NCBI GenBank assembly: GCA_026982705.1
Contig: JALSGP010000009.1
Coordinates: 29,429-93,428, forward strand
DNA: 64,000 nucleotides
Reading direction: 5' to 3'
Origin: Alphaproteobacteria bacterium
GTDB taxonomy: Bacteria > Pseudomonadota > Alphaproteobacteria > Geminicoccales > Geminicoccaceae
The position numbers and the translations under genes are program-made. This document shows positions 103-64,000 of the stretch, one piece after another (positions within the stretch are counted from its first letter, which is position 1; every line of letters starts with the position of its first letter). The notes under the pieces were generated by a model. It ran no database searches. It was given only the letters and a program-made list of their open reading frames with translations, and was not told the origin of the DNA.

Positions 103-795
103 TCAGCGGGCCGGCCGCAGCCGGTCGGCCCGCAGCAGGGTGAGGCGGCCGTCCGCCCGCCCCGGGAAGTGGACGTCGAGGGTGCTGGCGGCGTAGTAGG
201 GGTGATAGTAGCGCCGCACCGCCTCCACCGGACGCGGCCGCGGAGCCAGATTGTCCAGGAGCAGGTCGCGCCCGTCCACCCGCACCTCCAGCACCGCATG
301 GGGCACGTCGCGCCGGGTGTCCTGCAGGACGATCAGGCGCATGTCGCGCGCCGGCACGCCCAGGAGGCGCAGAGAGACATATTTGAAGATCGCATAGTCC
401 TCACAGTCGCCGGAGCGGGTGAGGAATTCGAAGGGCGTGGCCCAGTAGTCGCTCCGTCCCCAGATCTCGGCGTCGGTCCGATAGGGAAAGGCGTTGGCGA
501 ACCGATCCACCGCCGCCACCTGCGCCGCCCGCGACCGATCCCCGAGCCGACGCAGCAGATCGCGCCAGGCGCGGGCCCGATCCGACGGACAGGCCCCGGC
601 CCGGGCGAGACAGGCCTCGTAGCGCGGCCATTCCCGCGCCAGCCGATCCAGCAGGCGCTTCCACTTGGGCACCGCCTCGACGCCGGTGGTGTAGGCCACC
701 GCCCGCCCCAGCACCGCCGAGAGGGGCGCCGCCCCGACGGGGGCCGCGAGGAGCAGCAGCAGGAGAGCGCACAGCGGGGCCAGCGCACGCGACAT
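103..795 (-). CDS. secreted transglutaminase-like cysteine peptidase (BTLCP / peptidase C93-like)
   Basis: ORF 103..810. The internal ATG at 795 has GGAGGA 6 nt upstream. Signal peptide MSRALAPLCALLLLLLAAPVGAAP. Motif SGDCEDYAIFKY resembles the catalytic Cys region of bacterial transglutaminase-like peptidases (recognised from memory). Confidence 0.55.
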   Translation of the reverse strand: MSRALAPLCALLLLLLAAPVGAAPLSAVLGRAVAYTTGVEAVPKWKRLLDRLAREWPRYEACLARAGACPSDRARAWRDLLRRLGDRSRAAQVAAVDRFANAFPYRTDAEIWGRSDYWATPFEFLTRSGDCEDYAIFKYVSLRLLGVPARDMRLIVLQDTRRDVPHAVLEVRVDGRDLLLDNLAPRPRPVEAVRRYYHPYYAASTLDVHFPGRADGRLTLLRADRLRPAR

Positions 796-907
796 GACGA
801 TCCTCCACACTCCACCGCCGTGGAGGATCGCCCACGGATCTTAAGGACCGGTTAGCGGCGCGCCCGCGTGCCGTCCGTTCATACCCGGATATTCGCGTTC
901 CCACACG

Positions 908-2104
908 TCACGGTCGTCGCCCCTCCGCCACCCGCCGCAGCCGGGCGAAGCCCGCCTCGAGGTCCGCGACGAGATCGTCGGGATCCTCGAGGCCCACGTG
1001 GAAGCGCAGGGTGGGTCCCTCCGCCCGCCACGGCACCGCCGTCCGCTGGCGCTCGGGATGGGTGACCAGCACCAGGCTCTCGTAGCCTCCCCAGCTCGCG
1101 CCGATGCCGAAGAGTTCGAGGCCGTCCACCATGGCGTGCACCGCTTCCGTCGGAACCGGCCGGAGCACCACGCCGAAGAGGCCGGTGGCGCCGCGGAAGT
1201 CCCGCTTCCAGAGGGCATGGTCGGGATGGGTGTCGAGGGCCGGATGGAGGACGCGGGCGACTTCCGGCCGTCCCGCCAGCCACTCCGCCACCCGGAGGGC
1301 GCTCCGCTCGTGGCGCTCCAGGCGGGCGGCCAGCGTGCGCAGCCCCCGGAGCGCCAGCCAGCAGTCGTCGGGACCGGCAGGCGCCCCGTATTCGTAGATG
1401 CCGTCGCGGAGTTCGAGGTGGAGCCCGGCGCCGGTGGTCACCGCCCCCATCACCAGATCGGAATGGCCGCCGATGTACTTGGTCACCGCCTGGATGGAGA
1501 CGTCCACCCCCACCTCCAGCGGCCGGAAGAACAGCGGCGTCGCCCAGGTGTTGTCCATGGCCGTGAGGACGCCGCGACCGCGGCAGATCTCGGCGATGGC
1601 GGGCACGTCCTGCAGCTCGAAGGTGAGCGAGCCCGGCGATTCGAGGAAGACGAGGCGGGTGTTCGGCCGCAGGAGCTCGCGGATGCCGGAGCCGATGCGC
1701 GGATCGAAATACTCCACCTCCACCCCGAAGCGGCGCAGCACCCGTTCGCAGAAGCGGCGGGTGGGACCGTAGACGCAGTCCACCACCAGCACGTGATCGC
1801 CGGCGCGGGTGAGGGCCGCCAGGGTGAGCACGCAGGCGGCCTTGCCCGAACCCACCACCAGCGTGCGGTGGCCGCGCTCGATGCCGGCGATGGCTTCCTC
1901 GAGGGCGAAGGTGGTGGGGGTGCCGGCCCGGCCGTAGGTGACCCCTTCGTGGGGACGCCGTGATTCATAGGCCGCCACGGTGGGCGCCAGCACCGTCGAG
2001 GCCCGGTAGACGGGCGGATTGACGATGCCGAAGTGGCGCTCGGGGTCGCGCCCGAGCTGGGTGAGGAGGGTGGCGTCGCGAAGACCGGGGCGGATCCGGG
2101 TCAT
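908..2104 (-). CDS. metC: cystathionine beta-lyase (Cys/Met-metabolism PLP enzyme)
   Basis: 398-aa ORF. N-terminus DATLLTQLGRDPERHFGIVNPPVYRASTV and the PLP-lysine region AVTKYIGGHSD are typical of MetC-type enzymes. Confidence 0.8.
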   Translation of the reverse strand: MTRIRPGLRDATLLTQLGRDPERHFGIVNPPVYRASTVLAPTVAAYESRRPHEGVTYGRAGTPTTFALEEAIAGIERGHRTLVVGSGKAACVLTLAALTRAGDHVLVVDCVYGPTRRFCERVLRRFGVEVEYFDPRIGSGIRELLRPNTRLVFLESPGSLTFELQDVPAIAEICRGRGVLTAMDNTWATPLFFRPLEVGVDVSIQAVTKYIGGHSDLVMGAVTTGAGLHLELRDGIYEYGAPAGPDDCWLALRGLRTLAARLERHERSALRVAEWLAGRPEVARVLHPALDTHPDHALWKRDFRGATGLFGVVLRPVPTEAVHAMVDGLELFGIGASWGGYESLVLVTHPERQRTAVPWRAEGPTLRFHVGLEDPDDLVADLEAGFARLRRVAEGRRP

Positions 2105-2273
2105 GGCGATGCGTCCGCGGCTGCCCGCGCCCCGCTAGCACCGGCCGCCGGCGGCGACCAGAGTGCACACCCGCAACGCCCGTCCCGCCGGGAGCCGGTG
2201 CGGCCGCGACGCTTGCCGCGGCGCCGCGGCGGCGTTAGCTCCGGCGCGGTCGTCCCGGACGGATCGCGAGACC

Positions 2274-3074
2274 ATGGACCCCGCCCCCTGGCTCGAGGCG
2301 GCGCTTTTGGGCGCCGTCGAGGGCCTCACCGAATTCCTGCCGGTCTCCTCCACCGGTCACCTCATCCTCCTCGTGGACCTGCTCGCCTTCGCCGGACCGC
2401 CCGGGCGGGTGTTCGAGGTGGTGATCCAGCTCGGCGCCATCCTCGCCGTCTGCGTCGCCTACTTCCGCAGGCTCCTCGGCGTGCTGGTGGCGCTTCCCCG
2501 CGACGACGGGGCCCGCCGCTTCGCCGCCAATCTGCTGCTGGCCTTCCTCCCCGCCGCCGTCCTCGGCGCCACCCTCCACGGCTTCATCAAGGCGGTGCTG
2601 TTCGACCCGCGGGTGGTGGCGGTGGCGCTGGTCGCGGGCGGATTCGTGCTGCTGTGGGCGGACCGGCGGCCCCACGCCGAGCGTTACGGGGAGGTGGAAC
2701 GGATCCCGCCGCTCCGGGCGCTGGGCATCGGCCTGTTCCAGACCCTCGCCATGATCCCCGGCGTCTCCCGTTCCGGCGCCACCATCGTCGGCGCCCTGCT
2801 GCTGGGCGTGACGCGGCGGACGGCGGCGGAGTTCTCCTTCTTCCTCGCCATCCCCACCATGCTCGGGGCCGCCGTCTTCGATCTCTGGAAGAACCGCGCG
2901 GTGCTGGATCTCGACGGTCTCGCCCTCGTCGCCACCGGCTTCGCCGTGGCCTTCCTCGCGGCGCTGGCGGTGGTGCGCCCCTTCGTCGCCTTCGTCGGCC
3001 GCCATGGCTTCGCCCCCTTCGCCGTCTACCGCATCGCCCTCGGCAGCGTGCTGCTGGGGCTGCTCCTGGCCTGA
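2274..3074 (+). CDS. uppP: undecaprenyl-diphosphate phosphatase
   Basis: Internal ATG at 2274 of ORF 2163..3074. LGAVEGLTEFLPVSSTGHLIL and IPGVSRSGATI are classic BacA/UppP motifs. Multi-pass membrane protein. Confidence 0.85.
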   Translation: MDPAPWLEAALLGAVEGLTEFLPVSSTGHLILLVDLLAFAGPPGRVFEVVIQLGAILAVCVAYFRRLLGVLVALPRDDGARRFAANLLLAFLPAAVLGATLHGFIKAVLFDPRVVAVALVAGGFVLLWADRRPHAERYGEVERIPPLRALGIGLFQTLAMIPGVSRSGATIVGALLLGVTRRTAAEFSFFLAIPTMLGAAVFDLWKNRAVLDLDGLALVATGFAVAFLAALAVVRPFVAFVGRHGFAPFAVYRIALGSVLLGLLLA

Positions 3075-3200
3075 ACCGTCCGTGCGCGTTGACAGACCCC
3101 GGCCCCGGCCCTATATGCGCCGCGCACGCCGGGGCGTCCGGTGCCCGACACGTGTCCCCGGCCCGGCACATCCCACGGTCTCGAGCGAAACGGCCCATCC

Positions 3201-3518
3201 ATGTACGCAGTCATCCGCACGGGCGGCAAGCAGTACCGTGTCGCCGAGGGACAGGTGCTCTTCATCGAGAAGATCGATGCCGAGCCGGGCAGCACGATCG
3301 AGTTCGACGACGTGCTGATGATCGGCGGCGAGGAGACGCGCATCGGACGGCCCCGGGTGGAGGGCGCCCGGGTGCGCGCCACGGTGCTGGACCAGATCAA
3401 GGGCCCCAAGATCGTGGTCTTCAAATTCAAGCGCCGCAAGAACTACAAGCGCAAGAAGGGCCACCGCCAGCGCCAGACGGTGGTGCGCATCCAGGACATC
3501 CTCCTTCCCGACGCGTGA
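3201..3518 (+). CDS. rplU: 50S ribosomal protein L21
   Basis: MYAVIRTGGKQYRVAEGQVLFIEK start, inside ORF 3141..3518. Confidence 0.9.
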   Translation: MYAVIRTGGKQYRVAEGQVLFIEKIDAEPGSTIEFDDVLMIGGEETRIGRPRVEGARVRATVLDQIKGPKIVVFKFKRRKNYKRKKGHRQRQTVVRIQDILLPDA

Positions 3519-3526
3519 GGTGAGCC

Positions 3527-3793
3527 ATGGCGCACAAGAAGGCAGGCGGCAGCTCCCGCAACGGTCGCGACTCGCCGGGCAAGCGGCTCGGGGTCAAGAT
3601 CTTCGGCGGCCAGCGGGTGATCCCGGGCCACATCATCGTCCGCCAGCGGGGGACCCGTTTCCACCCGGGCAAGGGCGTGGGCATGGGCCGCGACCACACC
3701 CTCTTCGCCCTGGTGCCGGGACGGGTGGAGTTCCGTCGGCGCCACGGGCGGACCTACGTCCACGTGGTGCCGGAGGCACAGGCGGCGGAATGA
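3527..3793 (+). CDS. rpmA: 50S ribosomal protein L27
   Basis: [24 protein letters not shown]... canonical L27 N-terminus, directly after rplU. Confidence 0.95.
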
Positions 3794-6033
<2,240 letters not shown>

Positions 6034-50810: not shown

Positions 50811-51776
50811 TCAGACCGTCCCCCAGAGCGGCTCGCCGCGGGTGAAATTCACGAACCTGCCGACGGAGATGCGGCGCGCGCGCACGAGCTCGGCGACCCC
50901 GTGGGGACGGAGCCGCTCGGCCCGCGGCATCGGTGCCACGAGTTCGGGATGGGCCAGGAGATGGCGGATGGCCGAAAGACGCGAGGGGACCGTCCAGATC
51001 GGCCAGGTGATGGTGCGGCCGCTCTCGTGCCGCGCGAAGCCGGTGGTGGCCAGGCCGTTTCGGCTCGGGAACACCGGGAAGAGCGGGATACCGACGGCCG
51101 CGAGGCGGTTGGCACCGGGAACGGTTCCGATCTTGCCGTCTTTGCTCGTCGGATCCGCGAACTGGTAGGCGTAGCGCCGGTCCTCCCGGGGATCGAACCG
51201 GAAGCCGCCGAAGTTCGGATCGCGCTGGCGCTCCCAGTCTTCGGACAGCGTCCGTCGCACGAGGTCGGCACCGTCCTGACAATCCTCGAGAGGAAAGGCG
51301 ACGCCTCTTCCGGTTTTCTCGCGCGGGCTCATCCGTTCGAGAAAATGCTGATTCCCCTGACCGAACATCGTGCAAAGCGGAGTCGGTACGACGACCCGCT
51401 TCTTCTCGTCGCGCACCACACCGTCGCTCGCGAGCGAAGCGAGCACCTCCGCCCGCACGCCCTCGGCGTCACGAGCGAGTCTGCGGAATTCCTCGTCCGT
51501 GAAATCGGGATCCTTGCGCCCGCAGAAGGATTGGAATTCCGCGAGCTCCAGCACCCCGCGTTCGGCTTCGGCTGCGAGGTCCTCCAACACGACCCCCGCC
51601 CCGTCCACGACCGCCACCACCGGGATCCAGGGGCCACGGCCCCCGCGCCGCCGCCACCAGGTCCGCACCCGCCAGTCCGGGCGGGCATGGTCCAGGGCGC
51701 GCACGAGGCCCAGGAGTGCGAGGAAGGCGAGCAGATTGTCGTGGCGGAAGGGCTTGAGTTCGAATTCCCGCGCCAT
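50811..51776 (-). CDS. candidate type I-G/I-U large-subunit protein (Csb3 / Cas8u1-like)
   Basis: ATG 51776 overlaps the cas3 stop (ATGA). 321 aa. N-terminus FRHDNLLAFLALLGLVRAL resembles the start of Csx17/Csb3 proteins. Its position after cas3 fits the csb1-csb2-cas3-csb3 order. Identity not verified. Confidence 0.5.
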   Translation of the reverse strand: MAREFELKPFRHDNLLAFLALLGLVRALDHARPDWRVRTWWRRRGGRGPWIPVVAVVDGAGVVLEDLAAEAERGVLELAEFQSFCGRKDPDFTDEEFRRLARDAEGVRAEVLASLASDGVVRDEKKRVVVPTPLCTMFGQGNQHFLERMSPREKTGRGVAFPLEDCQDGADLVRRTLSEDWERQRDPNFGGFRFDPREDRRYAYQFADPTSKDGKIGTVPGANRLAAVGIPLFPVFPSRNGLATTGFARHESGRTITWPIWTVPSRLSAIRHLLAHPELVAPMPRAERLRPHGVAELVRARRISVGRFVNFTRGEPLWGTV

Positions 51777-54634
51777 CACCCCGCTTCCTCTTCGGACGTT
51801 CGGTGATCGGCGAGTCTGAGGATCGCTTCGAGATACGCGAGCATCCAGGGGCCGAAACGGCGATGCAGCCGCGCGTGGAGATCGAACCAGAAGGAATCGA
51901 GGCGGGCGAGGCCCGGGTCGCCCGGGACCTCGACCTCGCGCCCGCAGGCCTCGACGGTGAAGTCCCGCGCCTCGGGATCCTCGACCGGCGGGAAGAACGG
52001 CCTCCCGCGACCGTGATGGGTGCCGACGAGCCAGAGGACGAGATCGCGAACGGGCTCGTCCTCCCCCTCGAGCAATGTCGCGGCTGCCGCCACCGACCAT
52101 GCTTCGTGACGGATGCCCGCGGGAAGACCCGCAAGCTCTCGCGCCCGCCTCGGGTTCGAGAACCGGTCCGATTTGGCGAGCGGAGCCTGGAGCCGGGCCG
52201 CGAGACGGTCACCGCCGCGCAAGTAGGCCTGGAAGCGCGGCTCCGCCTTGCCGAGATCGTGCAGGCGCGCGGCCGTGACGACGGCCTTCGCGAGTTCGGG
52301 GGCGAGTCCGAGAGTCCGGGCGAAACGCTCGGCCTTGCGGGCGACGCGAAGGAGGTGATCGCTCAAGTTCACGGGCTTCGGTGCGAGGAGCGAACTGCGG
52401 TCGCTTTCGCCCACGGCCTCGCCCGAAAGCGCGTCCTCGTCGTCCTCGGGCGAAGGGAGCCGTCGGAAGCCACCGAGCACGCAGCCGGCCGGGAACTCCG
52501 GCCCGTAACGATGGAGGATCCGCGGATCCAGCCCGGCGAGGCGTTCGAGACGTTCGCGAAGGCGTGTGGGCAGCGCCTCGCGGGCGAGAAGGGCGTCGAC
52601 GAGCTCCGGCGCCTCCGCGTCCCCGAGCCGTTCGAGCTCGTCCCGCACGATCCGCCAGGCGCCGGCGCCGTCGAGATCGTCGTCCTCGCCGATCCAGCTC
52701 GGGGCGAGGGCCGGATGCAGGCGGAGAAGGAGGCGCCTTCGCTGACGCTCGATCGCCGCTTCGGCGAGATCCACGACAGGCTCGCGCGCTTTCGGGTTCC
52801 AGCCATAGCGGTCGCAACCGCCGTAGGACGCCGGCACGACGAGCACGTCGCCGGGCCGGATCGCCTCGGGGCCCACCACGGTCGTGGCCTCGTCCTCGGG
52901 TCCCCGCCAGCGGAGCACGCGGCGCCCCTCGCGCCGCCCGTCGTCTTCGCCTTCCTGTGCGGCGCCTTCCACGTCGGCCATGTCCCGGAGGTGTCCTTCG
53001 AGCCAGGCGCGGGCGACGTGAAGGGGAAGCTCGAGCGCTTCCAGGGACGAGGGCGGTGCGACGGAAAGGAGCTCCCGTACGCGCTCCGGGTGGTCGAGGT
53101 CCCATTCGCCGAGATCCGCACGCCAGACGATCCGGACATCCGGAGGACCGGCCTCGAGCCCGTGCAGGAACAAGCCGATGTCGGGTTCGGCCGCGGGTGG
53201 TGGCGAGGTGCGGGCGAGGACTTCGGCGTAGACCGGAAGGAAGACGGGCGCGCGGGCGCGCGGTGTGAGCCGTTCCGCGGTGAAGGCGCCCTCCTGCGTC
53301 CGGAAGGCTTCGATGCCGAAGTCCATCACCCGTGCCCGTCCGTCCCGTCGGGCGCGCGCCCAGAGCCACGTCCAGCTCGCGCGCAACGCCCCGCCGTAGA
53401 CGGGATCGAGCCGCTTCCCCGTGACGTCCGCCTTGCGGGCGAGGATCACGGCCGGCGCCTCGAGGGACTCGCCCCGGCGGTTCAACCGCCCGAAGCGCTG
53501 ACAGAGGGCGTCGATGGGCGCGGCTTCGGTGACCAGCGCGTCGAAGTCGAAATCCGCGCCCACCTCCACCGTCTGCGTCGCGACCAGGATCACGGCACGA
53601 CCGCCATCCCCGCGCGCCGGCCCGAGTCGCGCCTCGAGTTCGCGGCCGAGCTCGTCGCGCTCGAGCGGACGCGACCGCCCGATGGCGAGACGGACGTCCG
53701 CGATCTCACGGGCCGCATTCGAAAGGCGCTCGAAGATCGCGCGCGCCCGGGAGACGCGGTTGACGACGACGCCGATGCGCCTGCGGCCGTCCTCGAGGAA
53801 GGAGAGCGCGCGCTCGACGAAGGCGCGGGCCGCGGCCGCTTCGTCCTCCGAGTCGATTCGCTCGAGCCGCGCGGGCTTCCGCGCCGAAAGACGCCGCTTC
53901 AGCGCCTCGTGCGCGCGGTCCTCCGCGTCGAGCGCGAGGGCGCCGTCCGTCTTCGTGCCCGGTGTGGCGGTGAGACGGCAGACGACGAAGGGCGGGTCGA
54001 ACCCGACCTCGGATGCGCGCCGGAGCCGTGCGACGGCTTCGAGCGTGTCGAGAAAGGCCGCGGAAAGGTGGGCCTCGTCGACGAGATGGAGCACGTCGTT
54101 CGCGAAAAGACCGGCGTGGACCGGCCACATGGAGGGGGAGAGGCCGTAGCCCCGGAACAGCAGCCGGGAGCCCACCTGGTCGACGGTGGCGAGGACCACC
54201 GTGGGCTGGTGCGGAGTCCGGACCCAGTCGGGATCCAACGGCATGCCGCCGCGAAGGCGCACGACCGCGAGGGGTGGTCCGCCGTCGGCGAGGCCCCGCA
54301 GCGCCGCCGCCACGGCCGCAAGGGGCCCTTCTCCGGCCTCGCGGAGCCTGCGGGAGATCGTCCTGGCCCGGGTGAAGGCCTGGTCCACCACGAGCCGACG
54401 GTCGACCACATAGACCACGCGCACCGCGGCCCGCCGGGGGCAACTCGCGGCTTCGCGGGCCAGATGCCACACGGCCACGTCCAGCGCCGCCGTCTTGCCG
54501 CAGCCGGTCGGAATGTCGAGGAGTTCCGGCCAGCCGCGCTCCACCACCCGGGCCGCGAGCCGGCGCTGCCAGGGGAAAGGCTCGTGTCCCCAGAGTGCCG
54601 CGAAGAATTCGGCGAAGGAGGGAAAAGCGCTCAC
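51776..54634 (-). CDS. cas3: type I-G/I-U Cas3 helicase with C-terminal HD nuclease
   Basis: GTG 54634 overlaps the csb2 stop (GTGA). Motif I DIPTGCGKTAA and motif II LHLVDEAHL. C-terminal HD motifs AARLHDLGKAEPRFQ, GIRHEAWS, GTHHGRGRPFF. The 1425-aa ORF in the track is this gene plus a spurious 5' extension. Confidence 0.85.
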   Translation of the reverse strand: MSAFPSFAEFFAALWGHEPFPWQRRLAARVVERGWPELLDIPTGCGKTAALDVAVWHLAREAASCPRRAAVRVVYVVDRRLVVDQAFTRARTISRRLREAGEGPLAAVAAALRGLADGGPPLAVVRLRGGMPLDPDWVRTPHQPTVVLATVDQVGSRLLFRGYGLSPSMWPVHAGLFANDVLHLVDEAHLSAAFLDTLEAVARLRRASEVGFDPPFVVCRLTATPGTKTDGALALDAEDRAHEALKRRLSARKPARLERIDSEDEAAAARAFVERALSFLEDGRRRIGVVVNRVSRARAIFERLSNAAREIADVRLAIGRSRPLERDELGRELEARLGPARGDGGRAVILVATQTVEVGADFDFDALVTEAAPIDALCQRFGRLNRRGESLEAPAVILARKADVTGKRLDPVYGGALRASWTWLWARARRDGRARVMDFGIEAFRTQEGAFTAERLTPRARAPVFLPVYAEVLARTSPPPAAEPDIGLFLHGLEAGPPDVRIVWRADLGEWDLDHPERVRELLSVAPPSSLEALELPLHVARAWLEGHLRDMADVEGAAQEGEDDGRREGRRVLRWRGPEDEATTVVGPEAIRPGDVLVVPASYGGCDRYGWNPKAREPVVDLAEAAIERQRRRLLLRLHPALAPSWIGEDDDLDGAGAWRIVRDELERLGDAEAPELVDALLAREALPTRLRERLERLAGLDPRILHRYGPEFPAGCVLGGFRRLPSPEDDEDALSGEAVGESDRSSLLAPKPVNLSDHLLRVARKAERFARTLGLAPELAKAVVTAARLHDLGKAEPRFQAYLRGGDRLAARLQAPLAKSDRFSNPRRARELAGLPAGIRHEAWSVAAAATLLEGEDEPVRDLVLWLVGTHHGRGRPFFPPVEDPEARDFTVEACGREVEVPGDPGLARLDSFWFDLHARLHRRFGPWMLAYLEAILRLADHRTSEEEAG

Positions 54635-56127
54635 GGGCCCACCTCTTCCGACACCGGCAGCATCAGCCCGAGCCCGAAATGGCGTCCCGCCCCCAGCATC
54701 ACGGGTCCGGCCACCGGAGTGGGAAAGCGGATCCGGGCGTGGACCAGGGAGCGATGCCCGAACGCCGCGCGCACGATCCAGCCCCGACCCCGTGGATCCC
54801 GGCCGGAGCGCCGGCGTGCGAGGCTCGTGCCCGTGAGATACGGATGTGCCCCCACCTCGATGGCTTCCGGCACCGGAAGCCCCTGCTGCCGGCAGGCCAG
54901 TGCGATCTGCGCCTCCGCGCTGTCGCCGCGCCTGGCCTTCATGTGGCGCGGGAGCACGATCGGGGTCACGCTCGCGAAGCGCCGCGACGACCGCAGATAG
55001 CGGGCGGGGCGCAGCGAGGCCCGTTCCGGCGACGGATCGTGTTCGAGACGCCAGGTGCCGAAGCGGCCGAGGGTGAGGGTACCGCCGGCCTCGAGAAACC
55101 GCGCCACCGCATTCTCCAGTTCGATCCGGATCGGATCGGCGAGCCCGTCGTGTTCGCGGGGGAGGACGAGGGCGAGACCGAAGAGCCTTCCGTCCGACCA
55201 GTCGAAACCGACGTTCGCGAGAGGCAGGATGGCGAGATGCGGTGCCGCCGCCGGGCCGCTTCCCTCGTGGCCGCCGAGCACGGGCAGGACGGGCCCCTCC
55301 GCGTGCGCCAGGAGGGCTCCCCGCATGGCCTCGGCCACCCGGACGAAGGCCTCGAGGGCGGGGGCGCGGCGGCCCGTGCCTTCGAGCACGATCCAGTTGC
55401 GACCGTAGGCCGTGCCGGCGAACGCATCCGGCTCCCGTTCCCGCCACAGGTCCCGATAGCTCACGACGGGCGCGGGCTCCGGCCGGAAGCCGCGGCCCTT
55501 CCCGGCTTTGCGGCCCTTCCCGGCTTTGCGGTCCTTCGCGGCTTTGCGGTCCTTCGCGGCTTCGAAGCCGACGACGAGCTCTCCGAGCCGTCCAGGATAG
55601 GGAACGCGAAGCCGCACGACGCCATCCGCTGCCGGCACGAAGCGCGGCACGGGATCGCGCGTCTCGCGCAGAAAGCGCATGGAGACGAGCGAGGCGGAAT
55701 GGCCGAGATAGCCCACCTGCCGCGCGATGCGGTCGAGGGCGGGGAGATGATGGGCGACATCCTCCGCCGAGGCCCTCCACCAGAGCCGTACCCGCGGCGC
55801 GTCGGGCACGACGGCGGGGAAGACCCGCGGCTGCAGCTTGGCGGGAAGGCCGAGCTCGCGCCGCCCGTCGCTGCGATCGTTCGGGGGCACGTAGACCGTG
55901 CACACGTCCCGCGAGCCCGCGCTCGGTGCTTCGAGTGCGGGCGGGTCCAGGGATTCGAGCCACGAGAGCGCCGCCCGGCCGGGCTCGTCCGCCCCGTTTT
56001 CCGCCCAGGCGCACACGAGCGCCGAGAAGATGCGATCGGGATGGGGCGGCCATTCGGCACGCTCCTTGGCGGCGACGGTCGCGGCGCGAAAGACCCCCGT
56101 CAGGAAATGAACATCGAGGCGGAGCAC
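54631..56127 (-). CDS. csb2: type I-G/I-U Csb2 (Cas5-Cas6 fusion, GSU0054 family)
   Basis: GTG start with GGAGGG 11 nt upstream. The hallmark N-terminus AEWPPHPDRIFSALVCA and the glycine-rich C-terminus GAGRHFGLGLMLP. Confidence 0.8.
   Translation of the reverse strand: MLRLDVHFLTGVFRAATVAAKERAEWPPHPDRIFSALVCAWAENGADEPGRAALSWLESLDPPALEAPSAGSRDVCTVYVPPNDRSDGRRELGLPAKLQPRVFPAVVPDAPRVRLWWRASAEDVAHHLPALDRIARQVGYLGHSASLVSMRFLRETRDPVPRFVPAADGVVRLRVPYPGRLGELVVGFEAAKDRKAAKDRKAGKGRKAGKGRGFRPEPAPVVSYRDLWREREPDAFAGTAYGRNWIVLEGTGRRAPALEAFVRVAEAMRGALLAHAEGPVLPVLGGHEGSGPAAAPHLAILPLANVGFDWSDGRLFGLALVLPREHDGLADPIRIELENAVARFLEAGGTLTLGRFGTWRLEHDPSPERASLRPARYLRSSRRFASVTPIVLPRHMKARRGDSAEAQIALACRQQGLPVPEAIEVGAHPYLTGTSLARRRSGRDPRGRGWIVRAAFGHRSLVHARIRFPTPVAGPVMLGAGRHFGLGLMLPVSEEVGP
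55492..55563 (-). repeat. in-frame 18-bp tandem repeat x4 inside csb2
   Basis: Plus strand: gcggcccttcccggcttt x2, then gcggtccttcgcggcttt and gcggtccttcgcggcttc. These encode AAKDRK-AAKDRK-AGKGRK-AGKGRG (about residues 189-212). Confidence 0.9.
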
Positions 56128-56131
56128 GGCC

Positions 56132-57325
56132 TCATCCCTCCGCCTCCTCGGCCCCGCCCGAGAGTGCCAGCCTGCGGCTTTCGGCGACGATTGCCACGAG
56201 TTTTTTCTGCGGCCGGAGCCGAAGCGGCTCCTCGCGCCAGGGGAGGCCGGCCTCCTTCGCCGCTTTCACCGCGTCCGCACAGAGCGCACGGGCGGCTTCG
56301 AGATCGAGCGGGAATTCGCGCACGCTGCCGTCGGCATCGAGGATCTCGAACGATGCTGCGCCGTCCGGGACCAGATCGCAGCGCGAGCGGAGATTGTAGC
56401 CGGCACGATCCTGGGCGACGACCGCGAGCAGGGCCAGGGCCGCGAGCACCGTGCGCGCGGCCTCGTCGCGCCCTTCGTCCGCTTCACCGTTCACCGGAAA
56501 CCGCAGGCGCCGGAGCGTCGGCAGGCTGACGACGACGGTCTGCAGGGCGTGGTCGATGGTCACACCCAGCTCCTGGACCGTCGGGGCGATGTTGCCGTGA
56601 TTGACCTCAGAGGGGCGAACGCGCTTCGCTTTCTCGCCGGCCTCCTCCCTGCTGAGGCCCCAGCCGGCAGAGCCCTTGTAGATCTCCACTTCGCGCCGGA
56701 CCTGGAGCGGATCGATGCGGCTTCCCGTACGTTTTCCCGGGACGGCATCCACACCGACGATCTCCGAGACGATGGCCCGCGGGAATTTCGCCCCGAGACC
56801 TCCGCCCTGACCGGTCGAGTGCCAGCAGCCGAAGACCAGCGCGGTGGGCGAGAGCGCGAAGACGGCCGTGGCCTGGTCCGGCTTCGCCCGGATCAGCTCG
56901 AGGCCGGGCGGAGAGTGCCAGAACGACGTGCCGTCGAGCTCGCTGTCGCGGAAGATCGCATCGAACACCCGATGCGGGGCCTCGAGGGAGGTGATCTGCC
57001 CGAGATCGGAGAGATCGTCGTCACCGTCCTTCACTCCCTCGAAGTCGACCAGGATGTGCGGGATCCACACCCCGCCTCGTCGCAGGAGATCGCGCAGCGC
57101 GAGCTCCATGCGGTTCGCCTGGCTCTGGACCGAATCGAGGAGCACGCAGGTCTTCGTGTCCTCCCCGATGCGCCGTCGTTCGAAGACGTGCGTCGGCGCG
57201 TTGTCCGGCCCCGGATAGGTGGGCGGGAACACCTTGTCGCCCGCCCCTCCCGCGGGCACGAGACGCCGCACCCGCCGAATGGCGGCCGCCTCGTTGACGA
57301 TCATTCGGAGCTGTCCGAGATCCAT
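56132..57325 (-). CDS. csb1: type I-G/I-U Csb1 (Cas7, GSU0053 family RAMP)
   Basis: ATG 57325 with GGAAGG 8 nt upstream (the ORF in the track starts further up at 57433). LVPAGGAGDKVFPPTYPG, ALVFGCWHSTGQGGG and NHGNIAPT resemble Cas7u. First gene of the interference operon. Confidence 0.7.
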   Translation of the reverse strand: MDLGQLRMIVNEAAAIRRVRRLVPAGGAGDKVFPPTYPGPDNAPTHVFERRRIGEDTKTCVLLDSVQSQANRMELALRDLLRRGGVWIPHILVDFEGVKDGDDDLSDLGQITSLEAPHRVFDAIFRDSELDGTSFWHSPPGLELIRAKPDQATAVFALSPTALVFGCWHSTGQGGGLGAKFPRAIVSEIVGVDAVPGKRTGSRIDPLQVRREVEIYKGSAGWGLSREEAGEKAKRVRPSEVNHGNIAPTVQELGVTIDHALQTVVVSLPTLRRLRFPVNGEADEGRDEAARTVLAALALLAVVAQDRAGYNLRSRCDLVPDGAASFEILDADGSVREFPLDLEAARALCADAVKAAKEAGLPWREEPLRLRPQKKLVAIVAESRRLALSGGAEEAEG

Positions 57326-57352
57326 GCCACACCTTCCGTCGAACGCACCGTC

Positions 57353-57382
57353 AGTATGAACCCGGCGGTACCCCCGAGTCGA
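57353..57382 (-). promoter_or_regulatory. weak sigma70-like promoter candidate for the interference operon
   Basis: Minus strand reads TCGACT-18 nt-CATACT, about 30 nt upstream of the csb1 ATG. Each hexamer matches the consensus at only 4/6 positions. Confidence 0.2.
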
Positions 57383-57521
57383 GCTCGAGGCGAGCGCGGC
57401 AGGCCTGCCCGATCGACCCGAAGACGGCCGCACGGGGGCGGCTACGGATCATCGGCACGCCGCGAGAGATCCGTCGAAGGTCCGACGGCGGCCCGGGACC
57501 GACCCGGGCTGGTCGGGCCCG

Positions 57522-58073
57522 ATGGCGTCGGGACGAGGGCACCTCCGCCGGACCCCTTCTCGGACGTTCTCCGTCCCTTTTCTTCTTTTCGGACCTGTGG
57601 TCCTCTCGGAGGATCTCCGGGCACGTCCTCGCGCCGAACTGCCGCTCGACGAGCCGCCGGTGGAACGGGCGCGGCGTGTGGCGACGCGCGAGGAGCTGCT
57701 GCAGCTCGCCCGTGAGGTGTTCGGCGGAGATCGGGCACGGTTCGACGTGGCCGGGCTGCCGGTGTGGATCGACGTCCCGGCGCTCGCGGCGCACATCGGC
57801 CTGGAGCGGTCGATCTGGCTGCCGCTGGTGCCGGATGTCCTTACACGCCCGCGAGAGGTATGGCTTGGCTTCGAGCGCCACCAGCGCACGGGTCGGGTCC
57901 GGCTGCGCATCCGCGTGCTGAAGGCTTATCGGATCAAGGATGGGCGTGCGCTCGTCATCGTAATCGATGGAGACAAGGGCTTTCTGGCAGCGATCACCAC
58001 CTTCCCAGTTTCGCGAATGCGCGAGCTCGAGAATATCCGCGTCGGCCGTCCCCTGATGGTCCGCACGGTCTGA
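57522..58073 (+). CDS. phage-derived ORF, possibly the 3' remnant of a MuF-like head-morphogenesis/polyvalent protein (PBECR-like C-terminal domain)
   Basis: GC3-biased from ~57677 onward (VATREELLQLAREVFGG ... LPLVPDVLTRPREVWLGFERHQ ... RALVIVIDGDKGFLAAITTFPV). The first ~50 codons look non-coding. The frame is open back to 57360 with no better start. Lies directly upstream of the scaffold/protease-like gene, as in phage head modules. Family assignment is tentative. Confidence 0.3.
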   Translation: MASGRGHLRRTPSRTFSVPFLLFGPVVLSEDLRARPRAELPLDEPPVERARRVATREELLQLAREVFGGDRARFDVAGLPVWIDVPALAAHIGLERSIWLPLVPDVLTRPREVWLGFERHQRTGRVRLRIRVLKAYRIKDGRALVIVIDGDKGFLAAITTFPVSRMRELENIRVGRPLMVRTV

Positions 58074-58296
58074 GTCGGCACAATAGATCGGCGGGAGCGT
58101 TTTCGCGCCCCCGCCTGAACAAAGCGTGCGCCACTTGCCGCCCCGGCGCGACCAGGCTGGCTCGCCCCGCTCGAGCGGCAACCGGGACCATCGCGGGGCC
58201 AGCTGTCATGAACATGGGTGCGTGCCGGCTCGAGTGCAAGACGCCCGACAGCGTTCGCCATGACAGCGCCGCATCGCCCCTCATACTCGCACGGCG

Positions 58297-58839
58297 ATGA
58301 TGATCGAGATCCTTCGCACGGGGCGTTTCCTGGACAGCCACGGCCGGCCCGTCGAAATCCGGCCGGACGACCTGCACCGCATCGCCGAGTCCTACGATCC
58401 GGCGCTCCACGAGGCGCCCGTCGTCATCGGGCATCCGAAGGACGACGCCCCGTCCTACGGGTGGGTGCGGCGGCTCGTTGTCGAGGGTGACCGGCTGCTG
58501 GCCGAGCTCGACCAGCTCGACCCGGCCTTTGTCGAGCTCGTCAAGGCTGGCCGGTACAAGCACCGTAGCGCCTCGCTCTACCTCCCCGGCCACCCCAATC
58601 ATCCCCGTGGCGGCAAGGGCATGTACCTGCGCCACGTCGGCTTCCTGGGCGCGCAGCCGCCGGCGGTGAAGGGCCTGCGTCCGGTCCAGCTCGCGGACGA
58701 CGGCGATGGGGTCGCCGAGCTCTTCCTCCCCGCGAGGGACGGCCCGGCAGACACCGAACCCGCCCGCCCACGGAAGGGAAACGCCGACATGGCCGACCAC
58801 GACGCTCCCGATGGGATGGAGGGGCGAGGGCTTCCATGA
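58297..58839 (+). pseudogene. phage capsid scaffold/protease-like gene (P2 GPO / Mu I-like), 3'-truncated by the CRISPR array
   Basis: Strong GC3 bias. RTGRFLDSHGRPVEIRPDDLHRIAESYDP...PVVIGHPKDDAPSYGWV...GRYKHRSASLY...YLRHVGFLGAQPPAVKGL follows the N-terminal pattern of GPO/Mu-I proteins. Only 180 aa. The last codons and the TGA (58837-58839) lie inside terminal repeat R1. Confidence 0.55.
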
Positions 58840-61800
58840 GGCCCCGGCAGTATTGCCGGGGAAGATGGATCGGAGCGGTTTCAGCGGCACCGATGGCACC
58901 TCGCTTCAATGAGGCCCCGGCAGTATTGCCGGGGAAGATGCATCCGTCCGGGGTGAACGCTCCCCCACTTCTACAGAGCTTCAATGAGGCCCCGGCAGTA
59001 TTGCCGGGGAAGATTTGAGGAGCTCCACGAGCCTCTTGGCCCCTTCACGCCCAGCTTCAATGAGGCCCCGGCAGTATTGCCGGGGAAGATACGTCCTGAA
59101 CGTCCACGTCCTCGGCATAGAGAGTGGCTTCAATGAGGCCCCGGCAGTATTGCCGGGGAAGATGGGCGGCCGGCCAAAAAAAATCCCCGCGCCGCATACC
59201 GGCTTCAATGAGGCCCCGGCAGTATTGCCGGGGAAGATGGCGCGAGCTGATTGCCCAGAACGCGGAGAAGTTCGGGCTTCAATGAGGCCCCGGCAGTATT
59301 GCCGGGGAAGATCCGCGCGCGCCCTCGCAAGCGCAAGCGAGTATCCGCGTGGCTTCAATGAGGCCCCGGCAGTATTGCCGGGGAAGATGACCTGAAGGAG
59401 AAGGTCGAAAACGGCCTCCTCGACGCTTCAATGAGGCCCCGGCAGTATTGCCGGGGAAGATGTCGAGCGGGGCGATCGGGTCTGGACGTGGACCCCGGTC
59501 GCTTCAATGAGGCCCCGGCAGTATTGCCGGGGAAGATGACGGACGCGAGAACGGGGCCCGCAGCCGTATGGCGGCGCTTCAATGAGGCCCCGGCAGTATT
59601 GCCGGGGAAGATGCGCGCTGCATGAGGTTGTTGTCTATGGCAAGGCCCCGCTTCAATGAGGCCCCGGCAGTATTGCCGGGGAAGATGCATCCGTATCCCC
59701 CGTGGGCTGCGACGGCCCACGGAGCTTCAATGAGGCCCCGGCAGTATTGCCGGGGAAGATAACGGCCACCCCCGTGTAGGGGTAGCCGGGAGAGAGGCTT
59801 CAATGAGGCCCCGGCAGTATTGCCGGGGAAGATCGGCCGGGGTTCGGCACGTACCTTCGGGCGCATCTGGTCGCTTCAATGAGGCCCCGGCAGTATTGCC
59901 GGGGAAGATCTGTCGACGGGCACGACGGACGACACGCTCGGCTTCGAGCTTCAATGAGGCCCCGGCAGTATTGCCGGGGAAGATCTTCAGCGCCCCCTGC
60001 GCCGGGTCGGCCCAGTTGACCAGGCTTCAATGAGGCCCGGCAGTATTGCCGGGGAAGATCCCCTCCAGCAGGGAGACGTGCTGAGCGGGACCATCACCGC
60101 TTCAATGAGGCCCCGGCAGTATTGCCGGGGAAGATCACTGAGCCTGAGATCGCCCCTCTCCTCGCTTCCCTCGCTTCAATGAGGCCCCGGCAGTATTGCC
60201 GGGGAAGATTGCAGCAGAAAGGATTGCCGCCGCTCGTCGGATTAATGGCTTCAATGAGGCCCCGGCAGTATTGCTGGGGAAGATCTTGATGCGGCGGCGG
60301 AAGTCGCGACCGGTCATCATATGCTTCAATGAGGCCCCGGCAGTATTGCCGGGGAAGATGTCGATTCGGTTTACGGCGTCAGTGATAGTGGTGACGCCGC
60401 TTCAATGAGGCCCCGGCAGTATTGCCGGGGAAGATGCACCAACGGGGCGGGCTCGACGCGTTCGATCACAGGCTTCAATGAGGCCCCGGCAGTATTGCCG
60501 GGGAAGATCGGTGGAGAGCCTGAGCGTCCCGTGGTGATCCGCGCCCGGCTTCAATGAGGCCCCGGCAGTATTGCCGGGGAAGATCGGCGGAAACAGCAAT
60601 CGCTGTCATCCTCCGCCGCCACTGCTTCAATGAGGCCCCGGCAGTATTGCCGGGGAAGATACGGTGGGCGAGTGGCAACTGGAGGTGCGGCCGGCATGCT
60701 TCAATGAGGCCCCGGCAGTATTGCCGGGGAAGATGGGGCGCTCACCGTAAAGTGGGTCATACCGCATCGCCGCTTCAATGAGGCCCCGGCAGTATTGCCG
60801 GGGAAGATTTCCTCGGCGTGGCGCTGGCCGACGCGGCGGGGGGCGAGGCTTCAATGAGGCCCCGGCAGTATTGCCGGGGAAGATGCCGCGGAAGATGAGA
60901 TTTCCGACGCAGAGCGCGCTGCGGCTTCAATGAGGCCCCGGCAGTATTGCCGGGGAAGATTGGGCTGGGCCCTGGACCCCAGCCGAGCCACTCCAGGCTT
61001 CAATGAGGCCCCGGCAGTATTGCCGGGGAAGATGGGCACGCTGGTCAGCTATGCCCGTCGAGGCCACCGACGCTTCAATGAGGCCCCGGCAGTATTGCCG
61101 GGGAAGATCTCCGCGTCGCTCGCTCGCTTAGGGGCGCGGTTTACAGCTTCAATGAGGCCCCGGCAGTATTGCCGGGGAAGATTGGGCGAGGGGCGGGATG
61201 GGCCCGCTCCGGAGCAGAGGCTTCAATGAGGCCCCGGCAGTATTGCCGGGGAAGATCGCGCCGGCGAACTATTACGGGACGGACCATTGGCGGCTTCAAT
61301 GAGGCCCCGGCAGTATTGCCGGGGAAGATTGAGCTCCCCGATGGTGCGTGGGACGGGGGCCCATACGCTTCAATGAGGCCCCGGCAGTATTGCCGGGGAA
61401 GATAATGTGGTGTGGGACCGCATTCCGCCGGATGCGATGGTGCTTCAATGAGGCCCCGGCAGTATTGCCGGGGAAGATTCCTCGAGCTGTCTCAAAAGCG
61501 AATAAAAGCTATCGCGCTTCAATGAGGCCCCGGCAGTATTGCCGGGGAAGATAGGGGGCCGCGCGGCTGGTGATCGCGCGGCTCGCGCCCGCTTCAATGA
61601 GGCCCCGGCAGTATTGCCGGGGAAGATGCCGCCACCAGCGGTTCGCGCCCTGGTCGATGCCGGAGCTTCAATGAGGCCCCGGCAGTATTGCCGGGGAAGA
61701 TGAGGGCCCCCGCCCGCGCCCGCGGGGACGGGACGAACGTGCTTCAATGAGGCCCCGGCAGTATTGCCGGGGAAGATGCTCTGCGTCGGCAATCTCATCT

Positions 61801-62227
61801 TCCGCTGCTTTCAACAGCTTCAATGAGGCCCCGGCAGTATTGCCGGGGAAGATGGAGGGAGTGGGGCGCATATCTCCGCTCCCTCGACTGGCTTCAATGA
61901 GGCCCCGGCAGTATTGCCGGGGAAGATCCGAGGAGCTGACGCGGAGCCTGCCGGTCGCACCGGAAGCTTCAATGAGGCCCCGGCAGTATTGCCGGGGAAG
62001 ATCCGCCGCCGCCACTCGGCGGCGTGGCGGCCGATGCCCATGCTTCAATGAGGCCCCGGCAGTATTGCCGGGGAAGATTTCGTCGCCGACACGAACCGTC
62101 ACGCTTGATCCCGGAGCTTCAATGAGGCCCCGGCAGTATTGCCGGGGAAGATCCCCGGAGAAAGGGGGGGGGCGGGGGCGCCGCTACCGCGCTTCAATGA
62201 GGCCCCGGCAGTATTGCCGGGGAAGAT
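58830..62227 (-). CRISPR. CRISPR array, 46 repeats of 37 bp and 45 spacers of 36-39 bp
   Basis: Plus-strand repeat GCTTCAATGAGGCCCCGGCAGTATTGCCGGGGAAGAT, with internal hairpin CCCCGGCA-GTAT-TGCCGGGG. The minus-strand reading ends in ATTGAAGC, like many type I repeats. The cas genes and cas2-proximal leader are on the minus side. The degenerate terminal repeat (GCTTCCATG...) at 58830 marks the trailer end. Confidence 0.97.
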
Positions 62228-62434
62228 GGCTCCACGACAACCCGCTGGCGTCGCTGTCGGAATTCCCGACCCTGCGAGCACCCCCGTTCGAAGGAGCCTG
62301 TCCGGTTCCCCCACATCGCCCATCGCATCCTCACGATATCACGGATCGCTTGGGGCGCAAGGCCCCGGGCCCGATGCGAGCGGTCCCCGCCCCTGCGGTC
62401 GGACCGGACCGCTCGCGGCGAGCCGGCGAACGTT
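62228..62434 (-). promoter_or_regulatory. CRISPR leader (between the cas2 stop and the first repeat)
   Basis: 207-bp non-coding gap adjacent to the undegenerated end of the array. Contains a slightly A/T-richer patch (cacgatatcacggatcgc). No promoter could be pinned down by eye. Confidence 0.5.
62376..62416 (-). other. 11-bp perfect inverted repeat just downstream of cas2
   Basis: gcgagcggtcc (62376-62386) and ggaccgctcgc (62406-62416), separated by 19 nt. Possibly a cas-operon terminator or a leader protein-binding site. Confidence 0.35.
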
Positions 62435-62737
62435 TCAGACGATCACCGGCTCCCGTCGCACCGGCTCGAACCGGCGGCCGAGGCTCCACACCCGCACCTC
62501 TACACCCTCGGCCGGCCCCAGGTCCAGCACGAGGACATGATCCTCTTCACGTTTCACGAGCCTCTCCAGCTCCGCCCGAAGTTCCACCATCCGCCGCCGC
62601 GAGAGCCGACACTGGAAGACCGAGAGCTGCAGCCAAGCGCCATAGCCCTGCATCAGCCGGTAGACCCGCCGCCAGCGTCGGGGATCGGAAATATCGTAGG
62701 CCACGATGTAGAGGTGGGCATCCTCGCGGACACTCAT
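62435..62737 (-). CDS. cas2: CRISPR-associated endoribonuclease Cas2
   Basis: ATG 62737, 1 nt after the cas1 stop. 100 aa. MSVREDAHLYIVAYDISDPRRWRRVYRLMQGYGAWLQLSVFQCRL is the classic Cas2 ferredoxin-fold N-terminus. Confidence 0.9.
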   Translation of the reverse strand: MSVREDAHLYIVAYDISDPRRWRRVYRLMQGYGAWLQLSVFQCRLSRRRMVELRAELERLVKREEDHVLVLDLGPAEGVEVRVWSLGRRFEPVRREPVIV

Positions 62738-62738
62738 G

Positions 62739-64000
62739 TCAACGAACCAGATATTCGGGATAGTCGGCAATGTCGCCCAGAAGATGACGTGCCAGAAGTC
62801 TCGCCTGCAGCTCCAGCAGTCGTCGATATTCGAGACGGTAACCGAAAACCGGATGGGTGGCCTCCACGGAGAGACGGCGCTCGAAGGCGGCGATGAGCCG
62901 ACGGCGACCACGCGGGGTGAGCGCCACGGCACCGCCGGCCCGAAGGAAGTCGTCGCGACCGATCTCACCGTTGTTGACGGCACCCAGCACCGTCGAGTCG
63001 GCCAGCACCGGCCGCAGCGCTTCCATGAGGTCGAGGGCCAGCGCCGGCCGTCCGTAGCGGGGACGATGGAAGAACCCCCGCCAGGGATCGAAGCCGACCC
63101 GCACCAGCGTCACCGTCAGCGTGCGCGCGAGGAGGGCATAGGTGAAGGACAGGAGCGCGTTGAGGGGATCGGAGGGCGGCCGACGCTTGCGTCCCTCGAA
63201 GGTGTAGCCCTCGGCGAGGGCACGGTCGGAAAGCATGTCCGGGAAATGTTCGAAGTAGATCCGCCCGGCGCGTCCCTCGATGCCCAGCAGCCTTTCCATG
63301 TCGGGCGCCCGTGCACCGGCGGCGGCCAGACGCCGCAACTCCCGCAGCGCCCCTTCCACGGCGGCACGGTCGCGTGCATTGCGACGCAGCAGGGTGCGCT
63401 GATTGCGGATCTTCGCCTCGACGAAACGACGGGCGAGGGCGAGGCAGCGGGTCCGGTCGAAGCTCGCGGCGTATTGGGCGCTGCGCAGTTCGACGTTGCG
63501 GTGTCCCAGTCCGACGGTGAGGCCGAGGAACCATCCCCCGTAGCTGTGCCAGGCGACCGGGATTTCCCGGCGCATGAGCTCGTGGAGCGCGGGGGTGGTG
63601 ATGCTCGCGGTACCGAACAGGACCACCGACGAGAGATCGGCGAGGCGAGCGCGGACCGGCTCGCCCTTCTCCCGCTCCACCACCAGTTCCATGCCCTCCT
63701 TGCGAATGCGGGCACGGGGATCCTGGACGTAGAGCGGCAGGGTCTCCTCGCGGCGGACCGCCAGCGGGCGGGGTGCGCCTTCACCGCGACGCAGGAACGC
63801 CACTTCGTCCGGCAGACAGATCCCCACCAGGGCACAGCGCGGACATTTGGGGCTGTCCTCCAGGGGCGGTGGCACGCGCCCGGAGAGGACGGTGAGGCGG
63901 AGACCGGCGATGGCCTCGCGGGTCTGCCGCCGCAGCTCCTCGTCGAACACCACGCGGACACGCTCGCGGCTCCCGGCGAACCACAGGAACCCCTCCGGGA
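62739..64000 (-). CDS. cas1: Cas4-Cas1 fusion protein (5' end beyond the window)
   Basis: The frame stays open to position 64000 (…PEGFLWFAGSRERVRVVFDEE…). CPRCALVGIC is the C-terminal C-x2-C-x5-C cluster of a Cas4 domain. The Cas1 body follows (LFGTASITTPALHELMRREIPVAWHSYGGWF, NALLSFTYALL, PALALDLMEALRP). This fusion is the signature of type I-G/I-U. Confidence 0.9.
   Translation of the reverse strand, partial: PEGFLWFAGSRERVRVVFDEELRRQTREAIAGLRLTVLSGRVPPPLEDSPKCPRCALVGICLPDEVAFLRRGEGAPRPLAVRREETLPLYVQDPRARIRKEGMELVVEREKGEPVRARLADLSSVVLFGTASITTPALHELMRREIPVAWHSYGGWFLGLTVGLGHRNVELRSAQYAASFDRTRCLALARRFVEAKIRNQRTLLRRNARDRAAVEGALRELRRLAAAGARAPDMERLLGIEGRAGRIYFEHFPDMLSDRALAEGYTFEGRKRRPPSDPLNALLSFTYALLARTLTVTLVRVGFDPWRGFFHRPRYGRPALALDLMEALRPVLADSTVLGAVNNGEIGRDDFLRAGGAVALTPRGRRRLIAAFERRLSVEATHPVFGYRLEYRRLLELQARLLARHLLGDIADYPEYLVR

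Follow-up and report, generated by a model that had tools for sequence, protein, structure and literature searches.

How a slice of a phage head-gene module came to lie flush against the oldest repeat of a bacterial clustered regularly interspaced short palindromic repeat (CRISPR) array is the question raised by a 64,000-nucleotide stretch of DNA from an Alphaproteobacteria bacterium of the family Geminicoccaceae (assembly GCA_026982705.1, contig JALSGP010000009.1, positions 29,429 to 93,428 of the forward strand), the whole of which is referred to here as the window. The window contains a type I-G CRISPR-Cas locus in which about 1.2 kb of phage-derived DNA (57633-58827, plus strand) is placed, antisense to the locus, between the trailer-most repeat of the array, designated R1, and csb1, the first gene of the interference operon. 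This DNA is a non-autonomous piece from within the head-morphogenesis module of a phage that was temperate and had a Mu-like head. An earlier note on the same DNA had described two plus-strand open reading frames (ORFs), ORF1 (57522-58073, 183 aa) and ORF2 (58297-58839, 180 aa), as consecutive phage head genes cut at opposite ends beside the array trailer; both ORFs are present as described, and a related prophage in which the two genes are full-length and adjacent bears the description out. The origin that we tentatively favour is recombination of the phage with an old spacer of the array, followed by the deletion of most of the phage.

The related prophage was the one close match obtained from a whole-genome DNA search of relatives and belongs to G006, a genome of the same family and a different genus. 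DNA identity is 85% over window positions 57634-58006 and 76% over 58138-58826, with DNA-level E-values of 1e-135 and 1e-116, which are far beyond chance. The gene order in G006 is terS, terL, Portal_Mu, a gene for a 406-aa protein combining Phage_Mu_F (residues 55-171) with PBECR2 (residues 291-399), a gene for a 322-aa protease/scaffold protein and the next head gene, and these full-length adjacent genes fix the break-points of the fragment in the window. Occurrence of the same sequence elsewhere without an adjacent array had been named as an objection to a phage insertion at the array; the G006 relative sits in a normal phage head module and raises no such objection. No phage relative closer than G006 was found in 107 family genomes, in the genome contigs or in IMG/VR, and the same arrangement was seen in no other genome, an exact-protein look-up also being without match.

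ORF2 matched the PHROG 976 profile 'head maturation protease' with an E-value of 1.4e-61 over profile positions 33-172 of 415 only, and a full-length match to this family, covering the protease and the C-terminal scaffold part (about 320-415 aa), was not obtained. Seventy-nine phage records were also matched, among them gp32 of BcepMu and the head maturation protease of phiE255, with no alignment extending beyond about residue 142 of the query, and with the PHROG match these records remove the earlier reservation that the ORFs might have no phage homologues. A second reservation, that homologues of ORF2 might naturally be about 180 aa long, does not apply either: among the best 150 homologues from a scan of 1.84 billion representative proteins the median length was 367 aa and just 2 proteins were shorter than 200 aa, and ORF2 is therefore truncated and not naturally short. 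Homology to the 322-aa G006 protein extends through ...ADMADHDAPDGME(G)R at 58827, so that the N-terminal protease half is kept and the C-terminal scaffold half is missing. The earlier assignment to the N-terminal part of a scaffold-protease was thus correct in kind, and its length of about 135 aa was too short, as about 177 native codons are kept. The family names suggested for ORF2 did not hold, since the score for Phage_GPO (PF05929), 10.8 bits, is well below the cut-off of 33.6 and no match to Mu-like_Pro (PF10123) was obtained at E <= 1.

ORF1 is a member of the Pfam family PBECR2 (PF18810; 49.4 bits against a cut-off of 27.1, E-value 6.5e-13), its residues 68-175 aligning with profile positions 12-115 of 120. 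The fragment holds a complete PBECR2 domain; the Phage_Mu_F domain (PF04233) is missing and gave no match at E <= 1 in ORF1 or in its 237-aa open frame. In the G006 homologue the Phage_Mu_F domain lies upstream of the break, which falls at residue ~261 in the linker just ahead of the PBECR2 toxin domain, and ORF1 is therefore a fragment of a MuF-fusion gene and not a MuF protein. Of the MuF/PBECR-like C-terminal fragment that had been proposed, the PBECR2 part stands and the Phage_Mu_F domain has to be dropped. That ORF1 lacks a credible start was seen correctly: the codon-position GC pattern begins only at 57633, the ATG at 57522 lies within non-phage, non-coding DNA, and the start region spans a terminator-like hairpin. 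The C-terminal domains of MuF proteins differ between related prophages of the bacterial family, with PBECR2 in G006 (L011 17249-18469) and another domain in G085 (L045, G085:C103 3-893), and these differences fit the cassette-swapping expected of polymorphic MuF toxins.

The intergenic region between the two gene fragments aligns with that of G006 and includes a 46-nt block (GGCTCGCCCCGCTCGAGCGGCAACCGGGACCATCGCGGGGCCAGCT) at window positions 58159-58204 that is 100% identical to G006:C10:89524-89569, against 76-85% for the flanking genes. The block contains a 7-bp GC inverted repeat, occurs among 107 family genomes only in the window genome and G006, and may be a phage regulatory site or RNA element. 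The G006 alignment gave no conserved small ORF or immunity-type ORF in this region, which folds no better than shuffled sequence (z = 0.46) and contains no Rfam family.

On its left side the phage DNA begins at ~57633. DNA homology with G006 starts at 57634, and the high/low/high alternation of GC content across codon positions begins at 57633 and is flat in 57360-57632. The left edge of the phage part had been put at 57360 or 57522 and is therefore shifted to the right; that the insert is phage DNA is upheld, and its demonstrable extent is ~1.2 kb in place of 1.4 kb from 57360. For the adjoining stretch 57326-57632 no homologue was found in the own genome, the 107 family genomes, the fetched phage loci, the metagenome contigs or the genome contigs. 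Comparisons by blastn and tblastx gave chance-level matches only for this stretch, one weak tblastx match to the G006 MuF gene being out of frame. The stretch is possibly native trailer together with the csb1 promoter region. No degenerate CRISPR repeat beyond chance was detected in 57000-58829, and Rfam found R1 alone in 57200-58900; the fragment as a true 'giant spacer', with a repeat on both sides, was accordingly rejected, a repeat (R1) being present on the right side only. The terminator-like hairpin (GGACGTTCTCCGTCC), followed by a T-rich run (CTTTTCTTCTTTT), occupies 57562-57590 on the plus strand, ~45 nt left of the fragment border, in non-coding DNA of 70% G+C, and no plus-strand gene ends there.

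Both phage fragments are single-copy in a genome that is 99.7% complete. The terminase, the portal and five other products of the G006 prophage were absent from this genome by tblastn, which returned a weak HNH endonuclease match on another contig. No frameshifts are present in the fragment, and relative to 61 outgroups the protease domain carries 4 window-specific and 12 G006-specific substitutions; by these signs the fragment is fresh and arrived recently. The native product of either gene fragment cannot be made, and the phage fragment is probably without function.

A genome of the same genus (G003; L026, G003:C23 6572-7329) shows the locus in another state. There the array, oriented in the same way, is found immediately upstream of csb1 with a gap of ~170 bp and no phage DNA, compared with an array-to-csb1 gap of 1504 bp in the window, and relative to this sister the phage fragment is an insert. 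Since G003 also has it, the layout with the array in the middle of the locus goes back to the ancestry of the genus and is not a consequence of the insert. Exact-match scans of metagenome and genome contigs with a left-flank 27-mer and with the oldest spacer gave no sister strain and no empty site. The terminal repeat of the G003 array is degenerate in its last ~9 nt. A second genome of the genus, G001 (L054, G001:C177 1-1000), has a related array with the repeat ...CCCCGGCATTACTGCCGGGGCCAAATTGAAGC, in which a tRNA-like sequence and a gene for a methyltransferase, and not csb1, come after the trailer. No Csb1 homologue was found in the G001 genome, and its array may be orphan or relocated.

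The right border is the one that bears on the array. Phage homology ends at 58827 with the Arg codon 58825-58827, the next two bases (GG) can be assigned to neither side, and R1 starts at 58830, which places the border 0-2 nt from the repeat. The codons of the window are ...GAT GGG ATG GAG GGG CGA / GG / GCTTCCATGA... and those of G006 are ...GAT GCG ATG GAG GCG CGC CTC AAG GAG..., and it can be read directly that R1 supplies the last codons of ORF2 and its TGA at 58837-58839, as had been stated earlier. In the sense of the CRISPR RNA (crRNA) the phage DNA abuts the 3' end of R1 (...ATGGAAGC), which is the 'spacer side' of the repeat. The repeat 3' end ATTGAAGC, taken from the reverse complement of the consensus, is the end at which spacer-side integration is scored in the type I-G system of Methanosarcina barkeri (PMC10504553), and in type I-G systems this is where the spacer end proximal to the protospacer-adjacent motif (PAM) is attached once Cas4 has removed the PAM, a motif that reads GAA or TTC depending on the strand (PMC10504553). 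The G006 bases equivalent to 58830-58832 are CAA; in crRNA sense this is 5'-TTG-3', located immediately upstream of the 'protospacer'. This TTG at the PAM position is a TTN-type motif, as in the type I-G systems that have been studied, and the AA dinucleotide has a frequency of only 2.6% in that G006 phage region. R1 is nearly perfect, with GCTTCC in place of the consensus GCTTCA, unlike the degenerate true terminal repeat of G003, as would be expected if R1 had once been internal. A join by microhomology was also considered and found unconvincing: GCCTCAAGGAG of G006 and GCTTCAATGAGG of the repeat agree at 9/12 positions, a 4-nt shift is needed, and the variant base of R1 is left unexplained. 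Border position and TTG together suggest, on the evidence of one genome and one homologue, that CRISPR logic selected the place of the join, and in this single example the array itself may have guided the capture of phage DNA.

The account that we prefer, tentatively and at somewhat less than even confidence, is that the phage recombined with an old spacer and that most of it was later deleted. An older spacer beside R1 would have matched the phage protease gene just downstream of a TTN PAM, and homologous recombination between this spacer and its protospacer would have joined the phage DNA to the array in the manner of a Campbell integration; recombination of this kind would leave phage sequence flush with the spacer-side border of R1. 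A later large deletion would have removed the remaining phage DNA along with one or more older repeats and some of the trailer, and the left break at ~57633 would derive from it. The second copy of the protospacer would have retained its PAM, and self-targeting by Cascade-Cas3 may have driven the deletion, hence the loss on one side only. Type I Cas3 produces long deletions.

Several observations weigh against this account. The PAM argument depends on one homologue of 76% identity whose three junction bases differ from those of the window, and the in-genome proxy, obtained from spacer 59164-59201 and an overlapping spacer of another array that covers the same terminator-like target sequence, is CAG and not TTN. 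A chance deletion end-point would fall within 2 nt of such a repeat border in roughly 4-13% of cases, as estimated for a 37-nt repeat in a ~75-nt period, which is not negligible. The left border is without a repeat or recognisable feature, and the junction is known from the draft assembly (48 contigs) of one genome alone. The search of all 45 spacers against the fragment and related prophages that the earlier note had called for was run, and none of the spacers now in the array has a match in the fragment, in ~40 kb of the contig with the G006 prophage or in the prophage regions of G085 and G017; there is therefore no independent sign that the array ever targeted this phage family. Protospacers for the array spacers were likewise absent from the own genome, the IMG/VR loci, the INPHARED phages and the PLSDB plasmids, scans of viral contigs were empty, and the in-genome matches of array spacers were to spacers of other arrays only.

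Ordinary decay of a prophage is the next account to be considered. A temperate phage would have integrated into the trailer or among the oldest repeats of the array and been reduced by two illegitimate deletions, or phage DNA would have been inserted during break repair, and the flush join would be coincidental. Prophage remnants are very common, the left border carries no CRISPR feature, the spacers match nothing of this phage family, the chance of an end-point near the repeat border is the one given above, and the coincidence at the PAM position comes from one diverged homologue, all of which this account accommodates. It is set back by the need for two independent coincidences, a junction at the repeat border and a TTG where AA makes up 2.6% of dinucleotides, by the absence from the genome of phage ends, of an integrase or transposase and of all further genes of this phage, and by the undecayed state of the fragment, from which both deletions would have to be recent. 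We consider it somewhat unlikely.

Less probable again, and in our judgement clearly unlikely, is an error of the adaptation machinery, in which Cas4g/Cas1g-Cas2 joined a long, PAM-cut phage DNA to the trailer-most repeat in a half-site reaction and the far end was repaired to the trailer. The geometry and strand of the junction are those of spacer-side integration of a PAM end, TTG stands at the PAM position in the homologue, and intact Cas4g/Cas1g and Cas2 are encoded beside the array; 57326-57632 would then simply be native trailer flanking a single clean insertion, and the short trailer-to-csb1 gap of the sister G003 agrees with this. In normal integration, however, the complex holds a substrate of 36-39 bp and inserts it at the leader-proximal repeat, which is duplicated, and no second repeat is found at the left border. 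The genome also encodes no Ku for end joining. We know of no demonstration that adaptation machinery integrates kilobase DNA in vivo, which counts further against this route. It is correspondingly doubtful that arrays occasionally archive gene-sized fragments in this way, as a kilobase 'spacer' without repeat duplication.

It is very improbable that the draft assembly wrongly joined phage sequence to the array through spacer/protospacer k-mers: arrays and phage targets do share exact 36-39-mers and the draft has many contigs, yet it would take two chimeric joins with just 1.2 kb between them, nothing else in the assembly has sequence in common with the left join (57633), and the remainder of the phage is on no other contig. 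Equally improbable is that the PBECR2 ORF and/or the protease domain is expressed and kept as domesticated cargo that might act as a toxin or as a decoy for related phages. The two open frames, the complete PBECR2 domain, the protease part without excess substitutions and a promoter-like site at 58260-58287 would speak for this; ORF1 has no credible start, its ATG lying in non-coding DNA and its start region spanning the terminator-like hairpin, no small immunity-type ORF lies between the fragments, the arrangement is in no other genome, and open frames are weak evidence at 70% G+C.

The features of the locus are collected in the following table.

Table 1. Positions of the phage-derived segments, the array and the neighbouring cas genes in the window
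Feature	Position	Strand	Remarks
MuF-PBECR2 gene, 3' fragment	57633..58073	+	146 codons + stop; residues ~261-406 of the 406-aa G006 homologue
Phage intergenic region, MuF to protease gene	58074..58296	+	aligns with the G006 intergenic region
Head maturation protease/scaffold gene, 5' fragment	58297..58827	+	~177 codons; residues 1-~167 of the 322-aa G006 homologue
Junction	58828..58839	+	GG (58828-58829) + first 10 nt of R1; gives ORF2 G-L-P + TGA 58837-58839
R1, trailer-most repeat	58830..58866	-	one mismatch to consensus; Rfam CRISPR-DR16 on the minus strand, 35.1 bits
Non-coding stretch	57326..57632		307 bp between csb1 start and phage fragment; no codon-position GC periodicity
CRISPR array, type I-G	58830..62227	-	46 repeats, 45 spacers
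Leader, ~207 bp	62228-62434	-	next to cas2
cas2	62983..62435	-	adjoins leader
cas4g/cas1g	63998..62739	-	runs off the window; NF049935 592.3, cut-off 560
csb1/cas7g, intact	56132..57325	-	first interference-operon gene; TIGR02570 65.5 bits, cut-off 38; Pfam Cas_GSU0053 E 4.5e-48
csb2	56127..54631	-	
cas3g	54640..51776	-	
'Cas3-extension' gene	52100..50811	-	NF049934 family, after cas3g

All cas genes at the locus score above their NCBIfam cut-offs (further pairs of score and cut-off being TIGR02165 282.9/45 and TIGR02621 816/400) and the array is adjacent, which makes this a type I-G locus. The csb1 start at 57325 is fixed by relatives, which align over residues 1-397, and is preceded on the minus strand by the ribosome-binding motif GGAAGG. 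The strand of the CRISPR-DR16 match, the ATTGAAGC repeat end, the leader beside cas2 and the position of R1 as the sole end-variant repeat give transcription of the array from the minus strand, and with the leader by cas2 the end at 58830 is the trailer (oldest) end, as the earlier note had it; its figure of 45 spacers agrees with our count. No match to Csx17/Cas8g (TIGR04113), the large subunit, was found anywhere in the genome. Replacement of csx17 by the insert was considered and rejected, as relatives share the order csb1, csb2, cas3 and extension gene without csx17 upstream of csb1, and from this shared order the absence of csx17 looks like a locus variant and not damage by the insert. 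In this variant of type I-G, the role of the large subunit may be taken by the gene of the 'Cas3-extension family' (NF049934).

Within the array, spacers 28 (60885-60923) and 40 (61778-61816) have the same target on opposite strands, with 28 nt shared and one mismatch, and do not cover each other's PAM side. Repeat 17 (60024-60059) has 36 nt instead of 37. The genome contains two more large arrays of the repeat GTCTTAATCCCTTCTTCATCAGGGCAAGTGGCTAGAG, at C24:~160-5970 (at least 79 repeats) and C18:~64400-68100 (at least 40 repeats). The type I-G spacers 59164-59201 and 61330-61366 overlap near-identical spacers of those arrays over 30/32 nt and 21/21 nt, so that different CRISPR systems in one cell have recorded the same invader sites. 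One of the doubly recorded sites is an intrinsic-terminator-like hairpin with a T8 run.

If the flush junction did not arise by chance, the locus preserves, as a natural fossil, the joining of phage DNA to a CRISPR array, through spacer homology or through the integrase. It would then bear on how arrays lose old spacers, on the exchange of DNA between phages and CRISPR loci, which is relevant to the transduction of immunity, and on the sculpting of the trailer end by Cas3 self-targeting. If the junction is due to chance, the fragment is ordinary prophage scrap. The insert puts 1.2 kb of phage DNA, in antisense orientation, where array and interference operon are ~170 bp apart in the sister genome, and could alter the expression of csb1, csb2 and cas3. 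The locus is of moderate interest alone and of more interest within a survey of arrays.

The fragment may be set beside four known systems. It resembles the MuF polymorphic toxins (Jamet et al. 2017, PMC5576092), in which a MuF head protein of the packaging/head module carries a variable C-terminal nuclease-type domain, and differs from them in keeping the C-terminal domain only, the MuF domain, the start codon and the phage context all being absent. Prophages of the PhiAP1.1 type in Streptococcus pyogenes (bioRxiv 10.1101/2020.10.09.333658) likewise place phage DNA beside a CRISPR repeat and split the CRISPR-Cas locus; PhiAP1.1, however, is a complete prophage that integrates by its own integrase at an att site within the repeat, whereas the junction described here is made of DNA from the middle of a head gene, with no integrase, phage ends or other phage gene, and does not have the marks of such a prophage. 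Canonical type I-G acquisition (PMC10504553) also produces a junction at the ...ATTGAAGC end of the repeat, and the homologue has TTG at the position that matches the PAM, whereas the insert here measures 1.2 kb and not 36-39 bp, adjoins the trailer-most repeat and has no repeat on its far side. A precedent for recombination between CRISPR spacers and phage protospacers is Varble et al. 2019 (Nat Microbiol), as cited in PMC7145637 (ref. 60). In such recombination, phage DNA likewise becomes covalently continuous with the array at the position of a spacer by the short homology of spacer and target. The present case differs in being a fixed chromosomal remnant in a type I-G locus, with one junction kept and the guiding spacer no longer identifiable. 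The work of Varble and colleagues reportedly concerned staphylococcal systems, in which transient hybrid molecules are said to be packaged and transduced. With its identity settled, the fragment is a variant within the known phenomena of phage-CRISPR recombination.

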